64,000 bases of DNA, from contig OX597819.1 in assembly GCA_951406725.2 (NCBI GenBank), positions 21,886,001 through 21,950,000 on the forward strand, in the 5' to 3' direction. The position numbers and the translations under genes are program-made. Source of the DNA: Octopus vulgaris. Taxonomy: Eukaryota. Of this stretch, positions 11,691-40,404 are shown piece after piece. The first letter of the stretch is position 1; every line of letters begins with the position of its first letter. The notes under the pieces were generated by a model that was not told the origin of the DNA, searched no databases, and worked only from the letters and a program-made list of their open reading frames with translations.

Positions 11691-13140
11691 GCTACCCTCC
11701 ACCCACTCTCGACAGACCACTTGATGAGAATATCTCATAGTCATCGAAAATGGTCGCTAGTTCTTGCACATTAGAAATCTTTGTCTCGCTAATTGGAACC
11801 ACATCTAAATTGAGTGACATGAAGTCCTTGACAAGTGACCTTGATTCCAAGCTGACCCCATGTCATGTACATCCACACAATCCACTCTGAAAACGAGCAC
11901 GTTTATCGGAGAAACATATGGAAGAAGGTGACTTACCTTGGATTTTGGTGCGGTTCGGTTGATTCAGTCGCCTCGTCTGGAGTATTATCATTGATGAAGG
12001 CCCTTCCCAAAGTCCTTTTGCCCGGCTTTAGCCTAAAGAGCCCAATGTCTTTTGGTTATTGTTTATGGTCTAGTTATGTGCTTGTGTCAGTTTTTATAAG
12101 TTGTCATGGGGAATTTTCAACAGAAGTTCGGTGAACCCTGCTCCTTTTGTATGAATATTCGTGTTGTTCACTACTTCCCGTATCAGCTCGCTGTTGCTTT
12201 TGCAAACGACTGTGAAGTTGATGAGGCTTTTGGCTACTGTGGTCACTTGTAAGGGTTGTTCTTGTGATTGTTGTTTCTCTTCGTGTATTTGTTTCGGTTT
12301 TGGTAGTTGAATGAATGTGCATTGCTTTTGTCGTTGGGATTTGGGTGAGTGTGTCGGTGTGGTTAGTGTAGCTGATGGATTAGGTGGAGTTTCCTCGTCC
12401 TATCTTTTCATTTTCAGTTTAGGATGGCCTATTTTTAAAACTATTTTTCCACTTTTCCCCAACACAAGACCTTCTGGGCGGATTCAATTCCTCCTCGTCA
12501 AATGATAAGGCTCCTGAATTGCCAGAGTCGTGAGTACATGGCGCATGAGTTGCCCGCGTGTAGAGATGGTCGGGCGTTTCTTATTTCCAGCGCTACAGTT
12601 GTTGGTGTCGCTGTTGTGATGAGATTCCTCCGTTGAAGACGGTGCTTTAATAGCTGTTGCTGCAAAGATTGTTGTTGCAGCTATTGGCCTTCTTGTGGTG
12701 GAGGCAGTGGTAGCAGAGCCGCCGTTCCTCTAGCTCCATTTTGTTGTTGTGGGTAGAAGCCCATCAAATGTGTTAGACCCACAAGTGAGGCACTTCGGCT
12801 TTCTGCCTTCCACCACGACCTAAAGTTATGATCGTTAGGCAGCTCGATAAAGTCAGGGAGCTTGTGCAGGGATTCCGGGTTTACCTGGATCAAACTCTCC
12901 AACCCGATCCCGGTCCATTCTTCTTTCGATATTTTCTTAATTTCTAGAAACAAATCTGGGCCTTCGACCTCGCCGCACGCAACCAACCACCAAATGATGA
13001 AGAAGAAGAAGAAGAAGAAGAAGAAGAAGAAGAAGAAGAAGAAGAAGAAGAAGAAGAAGAAGAAGAAGAAGAAGAAGAAGAAGAAGAAGAAGAAGAAGAA
13101 GAGTGACGCGAACACGAGTAGAAGGTGATGATGAGTAGAA
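11683..13140 (-). pseudogene. Decayed Tx1-clade LINE: ORF1 C-terminal half, spacer and N-terminus of the ORF2 APE domain
   Basis: ESLHKLPDFIELPND/VVVEGRKPKCLTCGS resembles the intact ORF1 IESLPDKIYLENG..VMAEGKKPRCYKCGS. FRVDCVDVHDMGSAWNQGHL..SLNLDVVPISETKIS..VGG resembles the intact ORF2 LKLGCVNARGLASAWKQGYL..SLDVDIVAISETRLS..GGG. It has frameshifts and an (AAG)n at 12999-13102. Confidence 0.85.
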
Positions 13141-28494: not shown

Positions 28495-29198
28495 CTTTTC
28501 TACACTTGCCACAAGGCTCGAAATTTTGAGGGAGAGGCCAGACGATTAGATCGACCCCAGTACGCCACTGGTATTTAATTTACCAACCCCGAAAGGCAAA
28601 GTTGACTTCGGATGAATTTGAACTCAGAACATAGCGGCAGACGAAATACCTATTTCTTTACTACCCACAAGGGACTAAACACAGAGAGGACAAACAAGGA
28701 CAGACAAAGGGATTAAGTCGATTACATCGACCCCAGTGCGTAACTGGTACTTAATTGATCGACCCCGAAAGAATGAAAAGCAAAGTCGACCTCGGCATAA
28801 TTTGAACTCAGAACATAAAGACACGAAATACCGCTAAACATTTTGAGGGAGAGGCCAGACGATTAGATCGACCCCAGTACGCCACTGGTATTTAATTTAC
28901 CAACCCCGAAAGGCAAAGTTGACTTCGGATGAATTTGAACTCAGAACATAGCGGCAGACGAAATACCTATTTCTTTACTACCCACAAGGGACTAAACACA
29001 GAGAGGACAAACAAGGACAGACAAAGGGATTAAGTCGATTACATCGACCCCAGTGCGTAACTGGTACTTAATTGATCGACCCCGAAAGAATGAAAAGCAA
29101 AGTCGACCTCGGCATAATTTGAACTCAGAACATAAAGACACGAAATACCGCTAAACATTTCACCCGTCGTACTAACGTTTCTGCCATCTCACCGCCTT
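28495..29198 (-). mobile_element. Dimeric SINE family A with an internal 317-bp tandem duplication and ~17-bp TSD
   Basis: TSD GAATTCTAAGATATATT (28478-28494) vs GAATTCTAGTATATATT (29199-29215). 28523-28839 is repeated at 28840-29156. Confidence 0.88.
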
Positions 29199-29519: not shown

Positions 29520-29895
29520 TGTCTTTGGTTAACAATCGACAATGCATGCCTCGGTCACAAAAGGATCAATGTGAAAGAAGAAGAAAGAAATGAACGACCA
29601 TGACGATTTTAAGTGGGAAATACGAAGGTTGTGGTCAATGAGGAGAGGAGACGCGATATCATTAGCAATTGGCGCACTTGGAGGTATCGGTACTCAACTA
29701 CCAGCATGGCTAAAAAAAGATAAGTACACCTGCGAAGGTAGAACACCTAGAAAAATCAGCATTGCTTGGAACTGCAAGAATTCTTTGCAGGGTTCATGAA
29801 ATATGACCAGTAATCAAGTGTCACCTTGGTCTGCTGGCAGTAGACAGCTGACACTTTCCATCATACCCAGCAAAATAAGATATGAGTTATCACAT
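29520..29895 (+). pseudogene. 3' fragment of an RLE-type LINE followed by (CTA/CTG)n
   Basis: FKWEIRRLWSMRR...IGALG, LEKSALLGTARIL. The 3' UTR matches 31360-31440. Confidence 0.75.
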
Positions 29896-30149: not shown

Positions 30150-31445
30150 TATCAACGAGGTATTGGACAAGGAAATGAAAAAGGAACTCAGGATGAAGTA
30201 TTTCCGAAGACTGAGGTTGGTGTTGCGCTCAGAATTGTCTGGATGGGATAAAATCCAAGCAGTTAATACGTGGGTGATTGCATCACTTCGGTGTGGAGCG
30301 GGAATTATAAAATGGCAAAAGAGAGATGTGAAGATATTGGATACAAACACCAGAAAAATCTTCACAGTACATTGAGACTTCCACCCTAAGAGTGACACCG
30401 ATAGGCTGTACTTGTCCAGAAGAAAGGATAGGAGAGGTTTGATCAGTTGTCAGGACTGTATCGAAGCAGAGGAAAACAGCTTAGTGTAGTATATAATAAA
30501 TGCCGTGGAGTCATTATTAAAGCATACAAAGAAGGCCGGTGTCATAAACACTGAAAATTGTATAACTAAAGAAAACTTTAACCAAGAAATGAAAAAAAAA
30601 AGAAAAAGCACCGAAGGAAAAGAAAATGTATGGTTAGTTTGAAAGAGATGTGAACACCAAGAAGATATAGAGGGCCGGTGGCTTTGAATGAGGAAGAATG
30701 ACCTGCAGACAGAGACAGAAGCACTCATATGCGCAGCTCAAGAAGAAGCGTTAAGGACCAACTACATGAAGTGCAGAATAGACATCACTACCGATAGAAA
30801 CTATTGCCGAAATTGTGGTGAGAGGGGTGAAATAGTATGGCACATCGTTAGCGAATGTTCGAAATTGGCACAACGCAAATGCAAACGACGCCATGATAAT
30901 GTGGCAAGAATGATCCATTGGGTTCATTGTGGAAATCACATCCTAGAAAAATCAAAAACGTGGTATGAACAAACCCCAGAAGCAGTAACCGAAAATAAGA
31001 ACTGCAAAATCTTGTGGGGATCTAGTACGATCACCTGACCAGACAGCGGAAACCGAACATTGTTGTGGTGAATAAAAAAGAAAGGGCATGTGCAATAATC
31101 GACATAGGATACCCCTTTGACAACAGGATCAATGTGAAAGAAGGAAAAACCCAACAACTATGACGATTATAAGTGTAAAATACAAAGTTTGTGGTCAATG
31201 AGGAGAGTAGATGTGATGCGAATAGTAATTGGTGCACTTGGAAGTATCAGCGCTCAAGTTCCATCATGGTGGAAAAAAGGATTGCTGCAAGTGTGAAGGT
31301 AGAACACCAACAAAAACCAGTATTGCTTAGCACTGCTAGAATGCGTAGGGTTCTTGAAGCATGACCAGTAATCAAGTGTCACCTTAGTCTGCCGGATGTA
31401 GACAGCTGACACTTTCCATCATACCCAGTTAAATAAGTTATGATT
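30150..31445 (+). pseudogene. RLE-type (R4/Dong-like) LINE 3' half, decayed
   Basis: YFRRLRLVLRSELSG..KIQAVN, HPKSDTDRLYLSRRK..RGL, ETEALICAAQEEAL, CRNC..HIVSEC, RRHDN, ILW, KPNIVV, IIDI. Confidence 0.88.
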
Positions 31446-31449
31446 CATA

Positions 31450-34522: not shown

Positions 34523-34825
34523 CTTTTTATTGTAGCCACACAGGGCTAAACACAGAATAAAAATGGACGAAATACAATGTAGAATTTTTTCTTTTCGAGG
34601 TGGGATGGGTGGGGCAAGAAAAAAAAAAAAAAAAAAAAAAACGTTTGATCAATAGGGATCTGTGGGTTGTGTGGTGTATAAAAAAGCAATATATATATAT
34701 ATATAAGGTTCACAGTTTAGGTGTAGTCTTGGAAAGAAAAACCTACAAAAAAGACCAAGGTCACCTCAGGCAATTCGAAAAAGAACACATGAGTAAGTCG
34801 CCTTACTTCTCGTTGTCTCTTTTGG

Positions 34826-37800
34826 TTACAGATTTATGCTTAAAATAGTGTCGTCTTTCATACTGACCATTTTTGCCACTTTTACCCACTTTTTATTAAA
34901 ACATTCGTTCGACAAAGCCTTCCTCTCTATTCTCATCCTCCTTTTCAAGTGGTACTTGAAAAAGTTGACGAGAGACTGACCAGAGAGGAAGGTGTTTGTT
35001 TGCAGTCCTTTCAAACGCGTCCACCACACACATTCTTTCGCCATAGCCATCAGCGTAACGAAAACCGTTTTCCCTTCCCGTTTAAAGGAAGGTGGTGGAA
35101 CAATATTCACAATAGACTCGGCCGATAGGCGAGCCTGACCTACACGTGACAACAGCTGTTCGACGAAGGACCACAGCTCTGAAATATCTGGACACTGCAC
35201 GAGTGCGTGCAGAACGGTTTCGTCGCTCTGACCGCATCTCGGGCAGGTCGGTCCGGTGATGGTTTTCGAACCGTGTCTGTAGCTCTTCTCTCGAACAGGT
35301 AGTGCGTCTCGATAGCACTGCCAAGCCAGGGATTTCTGGAAGTTATCCATAGGCCCCGGCCCGAACGTCGTCCTGAACAGGCGGGTTAGGAATTCCTCGT
35401 CGACGCCCAGGTTTGCCCCGAGTGTGTCGTCGGACCTCCCCTCCACTAGTCCTCTATAGAACGCTTTAGTCGTTTGGAAGTTGCACAAGTTTGACCCCGG
35501 TCGGCAGAGCTGCTGTAGAGCTTGGCGACACTCTCGGTGCCAATCGCCCAGTTTCGGTCTCTTTTTGATCCACGTTTGCAGTTCGGTCAGTGAGACGAGC
35601 TGCGGGAAGTCGCGCCTCACAAACGGCGCCCACACCTGTTCACCGTCGTCGATGAATTTCCAGAGATGTCGCAGTCTCAGCGCATGCCTGCGCATCATCA
35701 ACCACGGCATGCCCAGTCCTCCATTCAACGGATGTTGACAGCAAATGGACTTCCTCACCATCGGAACGCCACCCTTCCACAGGAAGCGGAAGAGTATGCG
35801 TTCCAGTTTGGTGATGGTGGCGTCGGGACAAGGTACGACGGTCAGGCGGTAATCGATGACGGATGCGATGTACGCGTTCGCCACCTCCGCCCGGCCTTTT
35901 AGAGACAGCTTTCTCTCGGCCCATGTTTGGCTGAGAGCGACCACTCTACTCGTGATCTCGTCCCAGTTCTTATCCATTTGGAGGTCCGGACTGAACCAGA
36001 CCCCGAGCAATTTAACCGGTCCGTCCGTCCAGCGTCCCACTACTGAGCCGCAGTCGGACGGCATGGGCTTGCTTCTCCAGGTGCCGAGTAGCAAACCCAC
36101 TGACTTTTCCGGGTTAATCTTTGCTCCCGTCACCGTTTCATATTTTCTTAGTGTCTCGCCGACCAGCTCGATGTGCTGGTAGCTCGACACTATGACGGTG
36201 ACATCGTCCGCATATGCCGACACGCTCGTCCCGCAACCCAGTTCCCGTGGGATGCCCCTCAGTGTCGCCAGCTTCCGCAGTAGCGGCTCGAGAGTCAATA
36301 CATACAGAAGCGCCGACAGGGGACACCCCTGACGGACCGAACGCGTGATGTCAAACGGTTTAGACAGGTGACCGTTTACCCGAATCACCGATCGGATGCC
36401 GCTATACAAGGCAGCGATCCAACCGCGGAAGACGGGACCGAAGCCAGCCGCCCTGAGGACGGCCGCCAAGTACCGATGGTCGACCCTATCGAAGGCTTTA
36501 GACTGATCCAAATTTATCAGCGCCCCACCCATGCCAGGATCCTTAACTACCCTGTCCACAATGTAGCGCATCAGATGGAGGTTGTCATGTATGGTTCTGC
36601 CCGGCACGGCGCATGTTTGCGCCCTGTCGACCAGTTTACCAATGACAAGCGCCAACCTCTCGGCTATTACTTTGGCCAAAATTTTCAAATCTGCGTTGAG
36701 CAGAGTGATGGGCCTGAAATTATCTATAAAATTCCCCTTGTTTGAGTCTTTCTTCAGCAACGTCACTGCACCTCGGCTCACGAAACCGGGGATTCTCCCG
36801 TTTTGTTGCCAGTTGCAGTAGACTGATGCCAAGAGGTCGCCAAACAAGTCTGGCATTCGACAATACAGCTCGTAGGGTAAACCATCCAATCCAGGCGACT
36901 TATCCCTCGCGCAGCCCGCCATCGCATCCCACACGTCAGCGGCTGTGATGGGACTTTCACAACACTCCGCCTCTCTTGCCGAGAGCCGCGGCAGGTCGGT
37001 CAGGTAGGCACTGAAATCCATCCCTCGTTCCGACCCACCACTCGCACCAAACAGTCGAGCAAAGTGCTGTTGAAAGGCCTCACACATCCTTTCGGGTTCG
37101 AGTAAACTGCATCCCTGTTGATCTATTAGAGACCGAATGGTTGATCTGTTGCCACGCTGCGCCTCCGCTACCCGGGCCTCTCGCGCAGCTTCAATCCCTT
37201 CGTTCCTTAAGGCACGCATTTTAGCTCTGACGACGCAACCTTCGTGCTTGGCGTTGAGGTGTTGGTCGAGGGCCATCCTCGCAGCTAGCACGTTGGTTGC
37301 GCTGCCAGTGGTAAGTGCCTCTTCTAGTTTCTTAACTAAGTCTCCCTCTACTCTATTTCGTTCTATCGCTAATTCCTTGCTAAACCTAATTGATTCCGAT
37401 TTTATTGCCATTTTCAGGGCGTACCACCAGCGGTTGTTAACGACCGCTCCCGTCAGCGCCCTCTTAATTAACTCGCTAATCCGGTTCCTGTAAACCTGTC
37501 GCGCTAACAGCGACGTGTTCAGTTTCCAGTAACCGGGACCCTGCCTATGTGTTTTATCTAAGTCGAGCGTACACGTAACAAATTTGTGATCTGTGTAGCT
37601 GACTATTTTAAATTGTGGACATCCTACACTATCCCTATCCGCTGTCCTGCATAGAATTCTATCTAGATAAGATCTCGACGATCCGACGCGGTTTGTCCAA
37701 GTCCACGTTGGCACGTTCGGATGGTCGAGTCGGAACCTGTCAGACAAATGGAAACGTCTGAGCAGGTCTTTGAGGCTCTTACACCCCCTTCTATTCCTAT

Positions 37801-38275
37801 CCCTTCCCACATAATCTAGATGCGTGTCCAAGGTAGCGTTCCAATCCCCTACTAACAGTAAAGGTCTAGACGTACCCAGGAAAACCTCTAGACGTCTGAA
37901 GAAATCCGCCCGACCCGTTAAGGACGGTGCATAAACTGCCATCAGACGGAATGCACACCCATTTCTGCCATCCACGTCCAAGACAACCAGCCTACCCTCC
38001 GGGTCTAGGAATATTGCTCTTACTTTTACCTTTAGACTCTTTCGAAAAAGCACCGCAGTACCTCCACCACCCATGTTCGGCAGACAGGGAGAAAAATAAA
38101 TGTCAAATTGATTGCCAAACATGGACTCGAGGGCCCGCGGCTTACTGAGTCTGGTTTCGCTGATAGCTACTATATCCACGTCCAGTGACTTGATGTCGTT
38201 TAGAAGGTAACCTTGCTTCCAAGCCGACGCCAAGCCACGCGCATTCACACAACCTAATTTAAGCATACTTGACAA
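34826..38275 (-). CDS. Tx1-type ORF2: AP endonuclease, reverse transcriptase and C-terminal zinc finger (1149 aa from TTG; first ATG at 38266)
   Basis: APE motifs GCVNARG, ISETR, VYAP, VGDWN, YLDRI and TDH. RT motifs SPGLDG, FRPITLLNADLK, DQSKAFDRV, RQGCPLS and YADD. C-terminal CPRC..ETVLHALVQC. Confidence 0.97.
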   Translation of the reverse strand: MSSMLKLGCVNARGLASAWKQGYLLNDIKSLDVDIVAISETRLSKPRALESMFGNQFDIYFSPCLPNMGGGGTAVLFRKSLKVKVRAIFLDPEGRLVVLDVDGRNGCAFRLMAVYAPSLTGRADFFRRLEVFLGTSRPLLLVGDWNATLDTHLDYVGRDRNRRGCKSLKDLLRRFHLSDRFRLDHPNVPTWTWTNRVGSSRSYLDRILCRTADRDSVGCPQFKIVSYTDHKFVTCTLDLDKTHRQGPGYWKLNTSLLARQVYRNRISELIKRALTGAVVNNRWWYALKMAIKSESIRFSKELAIERNRVEGDLVKKLEEALTTGSATNVLAARMALDQHLNAKHEGCVVRAKMRALRNEGIEAAREARVAEAQRGNRSTIRSLIDQQGCSLLEPERMCEAFQQHFARLFGASGGSERGMDFSAYLTDLPRLSAREAECCESPITAADVWDAMAGCARDKSPGLDGLPYELYCRMPDLFGDLLASVYCNWQQNGRIPGFVSRGAVTLLKKDSNKGNFIDNFRPITLLNADLKILAKVIAERLALVIGKLVDRAQTCAVPGRTIHDNLHLMRYIVDRVVKDPGMGGALINLDQSKAFDRVDHRYLAAVLRAAGFGPVFRGWIAALYSGIRSVIRVNGHLSKPFDITRSVRQGCPLSALLYVLTLEPLLRKLATLRGIPRELGCGTSVSAYADDVTVIVSSYQHIELVGETLRKYETVTGAKINPEKSVGLLLGTWRSKPMPSDCGSVVGRWTDGPVKLLGVWFSPDLQMDKNWDEITSRVVALSQTWAERKLSLKGRAEVANAYIASVIDYRLTVVPCPDATITKLERILFRFLWKGGVPMVRKSICCQHPLNGGLGMPWLMMRRHALRLRHLWKFIDDGEQVWAPFVRRDFPQLVSLTELQTWIKKRPKLGDWHRECRQALQQLCRPGSNLCNFQTTKAFYRGLVEGRSDDTLGANLGVDEEFLTRLFRTTFGPGPMDNFQKSLAWQCYRDALPVREKSYRHGSKTITGPTCPRCGQSDETVLHALVQCPDISELWSFVEQLLSRVGQARLSAESIVNIVPPPSFKREGKTVFVTLMAMAKECVWWTRLKGLQTNTFLSGQSLVNFFKYHLKRRMRIERKALSNECFNKKWVKVAKMVSMKDDTILSINL

Positions 38276-38332
38276 TTACGAAAATTGTGTTTTACACACT
38301 ATATTAGAAGAGACAAGAGGCAAGAAGTGAGG

Positions 38333-40204
38333 TCACTTACTCATTTTAAAAGTTTCATTTTTTTCTTCTTCTTTTGTATCGTTTTTGATGAGGTGTTTGT
38401 ATAGTTTTTTCGACAGGTATCGTTGATACCCGCCTACCGCATTCGGAAATAATGTTTTCAGTATGTGGTGTTGTGCTTGTGTTATGTGTAAAATTCTGAT
38501 GTGTTTCGGTGGTGTGGTGTGCGGATGATTGTTTGTCTTAAAATCATCTTCACAGACGACCATGTTAGATTTGATGTAGTCCATTAATTCTTTATTGTCT
38601 GTGTCTATTGCAGTTAGTTGTGTGTGTGGTTTTACGGGTTCATTACTTTTTTGATTGTCTAGGGGAATGTTGTCCTGAGTGAGATATCTCCCTGCTTTAA
38701 TTCCTTGTTTGGTGGATTTTTTGGATCTTTTTCTTTTACCCCCTGTGGCTATTTGCCATTCCGTCGAACTTTCGTCGTCCGAGGTATCAGTATGGGGTAG
38801 AGGAAAAAGAACAGGATCACTATGTATGCTTGTATAAATTGTTGATGTTTTGTGCGGTGTTTGTGTTGTTGTGGTGTTAGGGGTAGCATTTGTCTTCTCG
38901 TCAGTGTTTTCTGTCTTTTTAATTGTCGTCCTGGGTGTGGGTGTGGGTCGATTTTTTGAAGATTCAACAAGTTTAATTGGTTGTGACGTCAACGGTGATT
39001 GTGTTGGTACTGTTTTTCTTGGTGATGTTGTTGGGGTTTGTTGTTTTTCTTGGCGTTGTTCCATAATTGAGTGTGTTGGTGTTGGTGTTGGCAACAAAGG
39101 GATTTTATTTGTTTTCTGAATTGTTCTTTCTTGTTTTTTCTGTACCAGATCGCACTTGGCAATCAAATGTTCGGGGCTGCCACATTTGTAGCATCTAGGC
39201 TTTTTGCCTTCTGCCATAACATATAGGCATTGCCCATTCTCCAAGTATATCTTGTCGGGTAGGCTCTCGATAGAGGCCCCCTCAATCTGGATGGTCACAA
39301 CTACTGTTTTTCCACCCCAATTGTCGTTTAGGTACACGGCTGTTTCTAGAATATTGATCTTTTTCAAGTGGTAACAGATTGCCCCTGTTATCCATTTGTT
39401 CGGCATATCGGGGGGTACATTTCTGATAGTAATTCTACTCACCCTCTGGTTTTTATAATAAGGGACCATGATGATTTCATCATTTCCCAGAGACTCAGTA
39501 GAGTGAGCTTTTGCCACTTCCTGGTTAGGGAAGCGGACCACTACTGTGTTAAACTGTGGACCCCAGTTTATATACTCTTTTTCTTTCATTATATTTTTTA
39601 AACATTTCTCCACATCAGTTTTTGTAATCTGTTCATTTGGTTTTTTGTTTTTTCTAATAATTTTATATACAATTGTCTTATTTTCAATTTCTTGTTTTAT
39701 ATGTTGAGGTGTATGCAGGACTAAATCTTGTCCACGGGTTGTAAAGAGAGCTCTTGTTTCTATGAGCTCTTCATTTGTGAATGTAACAATCTCCTTTTTC
39801 TGGCGAAGAATATCTGCGAAATTTACTGTTGTTGACTTTTTTGTATTGGCATCTTCACTATTAGATAGTTCATTTTTATTGTTGTTCTTGTTGTTGCTGT
39901 TGTTTTTGTCAATAGTTTTCGTTTCAGTTTTATTTTTATCATTTATGTTGGTCGTGGTAGTGGTGGTGGTGGTGGTGGAGGTGGTGGTGGTAGCAGTTGT
40001 TGTCTCGTGGTTGCTGTTGTTAGTGGTGGTGGTGGCGTTGGTGACAGGGCTGTTAACGCACGTGGTTGCAGCGTTCCTTTCACCGAATTTCACGTTGGCA
40101 TTTTCCGTGCGAACGTTCTTTTTTTTTTCTGTCGTTTCCAGACTAGGAAAATGTTGTTCCAAAAAAGAACGCGACCAGCGTTCAACAATAAAATTTCTAG
40201 ACAT
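38333..40204 (-). CDS. Retrotransposon ORF1 (gag-like nucleic-acid-binding protein), 623 aa
   Basis: Single CX2CX4HX4C knuckle CYKCGSPEHLIAKC (39152-39193) after an RRM-like region (RITIRNVP). It also has T/N- and T/P-rich linkers and a basic GGKRKRSKK. It is in the same frame as ORF2. Confidence 0.93.
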   Translation of the reverse strand: MSRNFIVERWSRSFLEQHFPSLETTEKKKNVRTENANVKFGERNAATTCVNSPVTNATTTTNNSNHETTTATTTTSTTTTTTTTTNINDKNKTETKTIDKNNSNNKNNNKNELSNSEDANTKKSTTVNFADILRQKKEIVTFTNEELIETRALFTTRGQDLVLHTPQHIKQEIENKTIVYKIIRKNKKPNEQITKTDVEKCLKNIMKEKEYINWGPQFNTVVVRFPNQEVAKAHSTESLGNDEIIMVPYYKNQRVSRITIRNVPPDMPNKWITGAICYHLKKINILETAVYLNDNWGGKTVVVTIQIEGASIESLPDKIYLENGQCLYVMAEGKKPRCYKCGSPEHLIAKCDLVQKKQERTIQKTNKIPLLPTPTPTHSIMEQRQEKQQTPTTSPRKTVPTQSPLTSQPIKLVESSKNRPTPTPRTTIKKTENTDEKTNATPNTTTTQTPHKTSTIYTSIHSDPVLFPLPHTDTSDDESSTEWQIATGGKRKRSKKSTKQGIKAGRYLTQDNIPLDNQKSNEPVKPHTQLTAIDTDNKELMDYIKSNMVVCEDDFKTNNHPHTTPPKHIRILHITQAQHHILKTLFPNAVGGYQRYLSKKLYKHLIKNDTKEEEKNETFKMSK

Positions 40205-40404
40205 TTTCTAATGTCGAGAAGAAAATAACAGAAATGAAATGGGGTCGAAACTGCCCCTAGGGGCGAATTCCTCCCTTGGAATGGCACTCAAATGAAAGTT
40301 GGTTGCCTTACACACCTTATTTGCAAAAATCTACACAAAAATTGGCCTATAAATAGTCAAAATAAATGATTACCTTCGGAGCTGAAACGACATCACATCC
40401 GTCA

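Follow-up and report, generated by a model that had tools for sequence, protein, structure and literature searches.

Introduction

In the Min Jou interaction of MS2, long-distance pairing occludes the start of the polymerase gene, and ribosomes on the upstream gene open it (PMC11339067). In tombusviruses, the PRTE-DRTE pairing of the first-stop region with the 3' end, over about 3.5 kb, controls synthesis of the polymerase (PMC3234231). A long-standing question about long interspersed nuclear elements (LINEs) concerns the second open reading frame (ORF2) of their bicistronic RNA: how it is translated, how its product is kept at low levels, and how that product is directed to the RNA that encoded it. 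In SART1 and mammalian L1, ORF2 of the bicistronic RNA is reached after termination of ORF1, the L1 mechanism being left open in the review that describes them (PMC5972666), and it has been argued that the ORF2 protein (ORF2p) must be kept low (PMC3894237). Here we analyze a full-length young Tx1-type LINE (L1 group) on the minus strand at 34523-40404 of a 64,000-nucleotide stretch of Octopus vulgaris DNA (assembly GCA_951406725.2, contig OX597819.1, positions 21,886,001 to 21,950,000; the whole stretch is called the window, and coordinates refer to it). Its sense RNA very probably forms a selected structure of about 3.4 kb, a ring in which ORF2 is clasped from start to stop. We regard the clade-wide clasp, together with a conserved U1 site, as real and as a variant of long-range translational switches.

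The closest described LINEs are the target-specific Tx1-clade elements Kibi, Koshi and the crocodilian microsatellite-targeting Tx1 (PMC4494074). Like these, the O. vulgaris element has two ORFs, an APE endonuclease and a reverse transcriptase, and inserts into a microsatellite, which is (GATA)n as opposed to (TC)n, (TTC)n, (TTCC)n or (TTTC)n. Start-to-stop pairing is not mentioned for Tx1 elements in the available portion of PMC4494074, and it was absent from the 20-21 distant Tx1/L1-like elements compared here; nor does the available portion of PMC5972666 give a pairing with the ORF2 end for SART1 or L1. The spacer between the ORFs measures 66 nt in this copy and 63 nt in L1 (PMC5972666), so that the overlapping stop and start of the SART1 type is absent here, an overlap being seen only in one sister family, D.

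Complementary arms border ORF2

ORF2 (34826-38266, minus strand) runs from an ATG at 38266 to a TAA at 34826 and follows ORF1 (38333-40204, minus strand), whose TGA stop occupies 38335-38333. A sequence-only reading of the window had proposed that ORF2 is bracketed by complementary arms anchored on the two stop codons. These arms were confirmed: the final ORF1 codons, the ORF1 stop and the pyrimidine-rich spacer (38308-38344, minus strand; 5' strand of helix 1) match the proximal 3' untranslated region (UTR; 34789-34821, minus strand; 3' strand of helix 1) at 29 of 33 aligned positions, with one 4-nt gap. The complementarity is bigger than had been noted, as a second helix lies in register with the first. 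The small spacer hairpin described earlier (38286-38298, minus strand) is likewise present, between the 5' strands of both helices; family C has a hairpin in the same place, and the feature is not general.

Taken by itself, this copy proves little. An alignment of equal score arose anywhere in the element in 27 of 150 block shuffles, a level not above chance, so relatives must decide. When the windows were restricted to the ORF1/ORF2 junction and the proximal 3' UTR, 0 of 300 shuffles attained the energy observed in this copy. The earlier remark that more of the mismatches suit G-U pairing on the antisense strand holds for this copy, in which the antisense duplex reaches -46.1 kcal/mol against -44.7 kcal/mol for the sense duplex; across families, it is the sense strand that is favored.

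Pairing is kept in sister families

Sister families were obtained by protein searches of the same genome. Their ORF2 identity to this copy, a member of family A, is 72% in B, 81-82% in C and D, 81% in E, 60% in F and 57% in G, and families A-G form one clade in a quick tree that was built without a curated Tx1/L1 reference set and omits subfamily A2. In windows of 90 nt upstream of the ORF2 ATG and 80 nt downstream of the ORF2 stop, none of 300 shuffles matched the sense duplex of helix 1 in families A, B, C, D or F, and three did so in G. The major groups have arms of unrelated sequence: those of B are purine/pyrimidine tracts, C has a helix of 20 bp that includes two G-U pairs, F one of 17 bp, and G a GC-rich helix within the ORF1 end. 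Twenty further loci had been held out, two of which lacked a mappable end; in 12 of the 18 evaluable ones (55-58% to this copy), helix 1 was attained by at most 4 of 150 shuffles. Outgroups came from 80 metagenome loci, 21 of which (for helix 1) and 20 (for helix 2) had an intact ORF2 and both flanks, and in the 21 distant elements helix 1 gave z-scores from -2.4 to +2.4. Loci L048 and L176-L179 are 5'-truncated and were unusable for helix 1. In sum, complementarity is kept through sequence turnover, with compensatory changes, down to 55% ORF2 identity. A captured inverted fragment, which the sequence-only reading had allowed for, is for this reason unlikely.

Family A offered a view of single pairs, through subfamily A2 (at 88%) and 60 older copies. 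One helix 1 pair went from C-G through C.A to U-A, and a second mismatch gave way to A-U in the youngest copies, the energies along the series being -41.1, -34.5, -33.4, -37.6 and -39.3; the order of states was taken from identity to this copy and not from a tree.

Three side observations concern the arms. In family G (L164, L167, L283), a local GC-rich hairpin may instead arise from the strand that helix 1 uses on its 3' side; the two folds are mutually exclusive, and this modelled alternative is the clearest candidate for a true switch. The 5' truncation of L048, a C/D-type locus, falls exactly within the donor-like site at the start of the 5' arm, a single case. In L279, a 17-nt unit of the 3' arm region is present three times, as compared to once in L281 and L290.

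The stem is predicted to continue across the ORF2 start

Co-folding revealed a second helix that the sequence-only reading had missed. The stem continues inward from helix 1, and the ORF2 start region pairs with the final ORF2 codons. In this copy, the core of helix 2 joins the start codon and next codons (38258-38267, minus strand, with a predicted bulged extension to about 38241) to the last ORF2 codons (34835-34844, minus strand, with a predicted extension to about 34863). The idea that ORF2 is looped out with its stop beside its start is thus supported more literally than it had been put, as the model pairs the start-codon region with the last codons.

Across the core (-1 to +8), five collinear representatives are paired in 49 of 50 cells, which count sequences and not events; four columns carry two-sided changes, and there are two G-U and no A-C oppositions. 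Under a synonymous-codon null, the observed pairing was attained in 0-9 of 500 cases in A, A2, C, D, E and G and in 26 of 500 in B. With the first helix 2 window, 6 of the 18 held-out loci passed (0 of 150 shuffles) and 12 failed, because in these the helix straddles the stop codon. We then compared 15 representatives, namely the eight earlier families and subfamilies (G re-read from a new locus) and seven further new loci, in a widened window. In 13 of the 15, no more than 1 of 200 shuffles matched helix 2, a count tempered by the relatedness of the representatives, which are not independent events. None of the 20 outgroup elements beat its shuffles (best, 28 of 200). The cognate 3' end ranked first in 13 of 15 representatives, being outranked solely by close sisters, and the sense duplex of helix 2 was better than the antisense duplex in 14 of 15. 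Single-molecule minimum-free-energy structures (3.7 kb) contain both helices in A and H1, the two that were folded. The constant feature is the predicted pairing of ORF2 nucleotides +4 to +15, which is paid for in both protein termini; it amounts to 0.70-1.00 in 15 of 15 representatives, in co-fold probabilities that disregard the cost of closing a 3.4-kb loop.

Besides this neglected cost and the relatedness of the representatives, several points weigh against a selected ring. The helix 2 window was widened after the data were seen, for all sequences alike. Helix 1 is unconvincing in family E, in which 43 of 300 shuffles attain it, and it failed in 6 of the 18 held-out loci. Its cognate partner is row-best in just four of seven families, and its antisense duplex is equal to or stronger than the sense duplex in A, B, E and G. 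Helix 2 is unconvincing in F (64 of 200 shuffles) and J (9 of 200), and family F gave 281 of 500 under the synonymous-codon null. Within family A, the mismatch state is the commonest haplotype (23 of 47), a pair was lost through one change, and A2 includes some uncompensated variants upstream of the donor-like site, which indicates that single pairs are weakly constrained.

The ring may gate ORF2 reinitiation

The reading that we prefer, and for which we consider the case evenly balanced, is that the modelled ring would bury the ORF2 start and gate reinitiation after ORF1. The stem that closes ORF2 into a 3.4-kb ring in the sense RNA would cover its start. A ribosome finishing ORF1 would melt helix 1, while helix 2, with its 10-17 bp across the AUG or first codons, would stay as a barrier, such that only some of the ribosomes leaving ORF1 would reinitiate and ORF2p would be kept scarce relative to ORF1p. 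A ribosome finishing ORF2 would traverse the 3' strands, which lie next to the start and close to the tail, and could reopen the ring; this reopening could release ORF2p next to its own template. Repression is favored because the whole AUG is predicted to be paired in 7 of the 15 representatives, this copy included. In the other eight, the A of the AUG is predicted to be unpaired, and in J the entire AUG is; this argues against repression and gives activation some room, and the effect could be positive, as in tombusviruses.

In function, the ring may be likened most to the MS2 Min Jou interaction. Both would place a long-distance helix over the start region of a polymerase gene, here by prediction and covariation. 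The Min Jou partner is 7 nt of the upstream coat gene, about 300 nt away (PMC11339067), whereas here the start region of ORF2 would be paired, within a eukaryotic mRNA, with the 3.4-kb distant end of the very ORF that it would gate, through 10-17 bp and an additional outer helix. As in tombusviruses, helix 1 joins the first-stop region to the 3' end over about 3.5 kb, and there is a competing local structure, here in family G. Unlike the in-frame readthrough of tombusviruses (PMC3234231), the present arrangement has no conserved frame, and ORF2 has its own ATG. The ORF1-ORF2 spacers of the families measure 66, 37-39, 50, -4, 42, 16 and 9 nt, that of this copy containing a second in-frame stop. 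As they vary in length and keep no frame, readthrough or frameshifting into ORF2 was excluded.

A conserved donor-like site lies at the clasp

The 5' arm contains the sole sense copy of GTAAGT in this element (38335-38340, minus strand), which we take to be the 5' splice-site (U1) consensus. GTAAGT, once as GTAGGT, occurs 7-74 nt upstream of the ORF2 ATG in 14 of the 15 representatives; among the outgroups, GTAAGT is found in 0 of 20 and the looser GTRAG in 5 of 21. Its coding context takes three forms (xGT-AAG-stop, a different frame in D, and a position past the stop in G), and it is unique or nearly so within each element, which suggests that it is kept as a nucleotide signal. On the G side, families read AAG/GTAAGT or CAG/GTAAGT. 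The claim that the 3' arm masks the donor applies to part of the clade: the site is predicted to be fully paired in A, A2, C and D, mostly in G3 and I, and about half in B, F, H1-H3 and J, but it is mostly free in G and G2, and E has no donor. With predicted pairing of 0.14-1.0 across representatives, masking is not what stays constant.

The gate model does not account for the conserved U1 site, which forms a second element. A broader version of the gate, which we put forward tentatively and think somewhat less than probable, would combine the two as a two-state ring with the U1 site at its clasp; in the closed state, ORF2 would be silent and the RNA unspliced and template-ready, and ribosomes would open it.

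That the ring instead serves the U1 site, through use of the donor for a spliced ORF1-only mRNA or through splicing-independent U1 suppression of early or terminal polyadenylation, strikes us as unlikely, even though the prevalence, contexts and G-side flanks of the site speak for it, as does a GTAGG that is invariant in the 3' UTRs of families A-E, where it follows a pyrimidine tract. There is precedent in the long terminal repeat (LTR) elements EVADE and BARE1, which produce a short Gag RNA through splicing (PMC12786077). As in these, a donor-like site is found towards the end of the structural-protein ORF, here in 14 of 15 representatives, and it could give excess ORF1p. Unlike in EVADE and BARE1, for which splicing is demonstrated, no clade-wide acceptor and no spliced product were found here. 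The two sites are not conserved together: family E lacks a donor but carries the acceptor-like site, F and G-J carry a donor alone, and the acceptor-like site is confined to A-E. An ORF2-internal acceptor-like column common to more than 7 of 13 families was not found either. Moreover, masking of the donor is variable, and bridging two splice sites needs no pairing inside ORF2 codons. Splicing-independent U1 action on polyadenylation is a candidate role for the site itself.

Genomic copies were searched for products of splicing. No spliced or ORF2-less copy was seen against at least 262 intact family-A copies, which sets a limit on retrotransposed spliced RNA only; of 30 copies, 29 were parsed and all 29 are unspliced, and none of the 60 older copies is spliced or ORF2-less. 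In B, C/D/E and H, no spliced genomic copy was found. Pattern searches of the genome either matched nothing or picked up unrelated DNA, one 5'-truncated copy, and variants that differ by point changes or small indels. In six runs, the Logan contigs contained no joint 38341/34742, a neutral result in that just 29 nt of the putative 3' exon were searchable (34560-34713 being skipped as repeat) and rare forms drop out. One Logan contig (run X5) starts exactly at 38340, which a variant bubble explains equally well.

Three specific splicing schemes fared poorly. ORF2 as an intron ending at the 3' UTR GTAGG is weakened by the lack of co-conservation of donor and acceptor, by the limited sharing of internal acceptor-like columns and by the lack of spliced genomic copies. 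A mini-intron in the spacer that fuses ORF1 to ORF2 was rejected, as a stop precedes the ATG and the AG is missing in F and some B copies. An origin of ORF1-only families from splicing at this donor is unsupported by the genomic copies, those families lying outside the comparison. Separately, two splice-like signals lie in the 5' UTR: a donor-like site (40372, minus strand) some 30 nt from the 5' end, and a pyrimidine tract (40208, minus strand) whose TAG is three bases upstream of the ORF1 ATG. Similar sites are present in C, D, E and F, and no copies spliced at them were found among the genomic copies.

Other roles for the ring

It is quite unlikely, in our estimate, that the ring activates ORF2, requiring full-length RNA and recycling ribosomes from the ORF2 stop, or holding them, at the start so as to enforce cis preference. 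The modelled geometry, which sets stop beside start, would suit such a role, as would a helix beginning right behind the predicted free A of the AUG in 8 of 15 representatives. Polymerase synthesis in tombusviruses needs its 3.5-kb interaction, which has been proposed to provide quality control and cis preference (PMC3234231), and translational coupling in SART1 requires structure downstream of the restart site (PMC5972666). Pairing of the whole AUG, predicted in seven representatives including this copy, would be expected to hinder start recognition and thus counts against activation.

A structure for packaging or template selection, acting in the ribonucleoprotein or in target-primed reverse transcription and leaving translation unaffected, is highly unlikely. 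The 3' strands adjoin conserved 3' UTR hairpins, and the outer partner varies by family, as a generic clamp might; nothing would require such a clamp to be centred on the start codon, however, and no copies were found in which reverse transcriptase had skipped across the stem base (0 of 60 older copies).

Chance, or a captured inverted fragment without function, is hardly tenable and largely refuted: the element-wide shuffles and slightly stronger antisense duplex of one copy and the low-complexity pyrimidine tracts of the spacers are outweighed by cognate-specific pairing that is kept at 55-58% ORF2 identity with unrelated arm sequences, shows two-sided changes inside codons and G-U pairs on the sense strand, and is absent from outgroups.

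The element and its surroundings

The element is the single full-length LINE of the window and lies within a (GATA)n array. ORF1 encodes 623 aa counted from its first ATG and has a weak CCHC knuckle, and ORF2 encodes 1146 aa with the APE endonuclease, the reverse transcriptase and a C-terminal zf-RVT. Pfam matches to Exo_endo_phos (E 1e-16) and RVT_1 (E 5e-30) give ORF2 the N-terminal APE and reverse transcriptase of the Tx1 type; zf-CCHC in ORF1 (E 0.002) and zf-RVT in ORF2 (E 7e-6) each fall slightly short of the Pfam curated cut-off, with motifs readable in the translations. The nearest named homolog is "Transposon TX1 149 kDa protein" (33% identity). Near-identical copies are spread over many chromosomes of the genome, the figure of at least 262 for family A referring to copies with one exact 21-nt 3' UTR motif. 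In 30 of 30 copies examined, (ATCT)n follows, which indicates a target-sequence preference, and we file the element as Tx1-type from its predicted architecture and targeting.

At the 3' end (34526-34546, minus strand), a terminal hairpin and AATAAA are present without a poly(A) tail; the 3' termini of all families shown have a small hairpin or similar stretch plus AATAAA and lack poly(A). A further predicted 3' UTR hairpin (34719-34766, minus strand), found in families A-E only, carries the invariant GTAGG in a pyrimidine-rich loop (acceptor-like AG at 34744-34743). It is weak in this copy (z +0.54), and family B has a different fold. An Rfam scan gave a single, chance-level match (E 0.81). 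The 3' UTRs of families F-J (L169, L271-L290) share a recurrent short motif with a CATTCGA core.

Sister families differ in target, as family B copies terminate in (ATT)n. In family F, seven of seven copies (L165, L166, L169-L173) stop at the identical base of an abundant short repeat, likely the head of a short interspersed nuclear element. Copies of families B and H are also arrayed head to tail, repeating about every 5.87 and 5.27 kb (C4:93.80-93.83 Mb, C47, C50, C27:32.97 Mb, C30:10.44 Mb, C22:14.2 Mb). At L289, the flank behind the 3' end resembles ORF1-type coding sequence, as if the copy lay inside or before ORF1 of another element. Elsewhere in the window, 11695-11894 is a short decayed piece of a related ORF2 N-terminus (39% identity), 28523-29160 contains repeat sequence duplicated exactly in tandem (317 bp), and 29531-29890 and 31094-31448 form an older duplication (spacing about 1.56 kb, 78-88% identity).

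Discussion

Switches that span such distances have been described in RNA viruses, and none was found for a LINE in the literature searched. The same search found no start-to-stop ring in LINEs, with subscription papers, supplements and Repbase-type family descriptions outside its scope. A clade of young intact elements presents a short covarying structure that joins ORF2 start to ORF2 stop and that can be broken and restored by synonymous changes. Natural variants separate its parts: family E lacks the donor, G and G2 have it exposed, and F has a weak inner helix. If the two-state ring is true, it would yield ORF2p in single bursts beside its own tail, and would provide a structural mechanism for the ORF1p:ORF2p ratio and for cis preference in a LINE.

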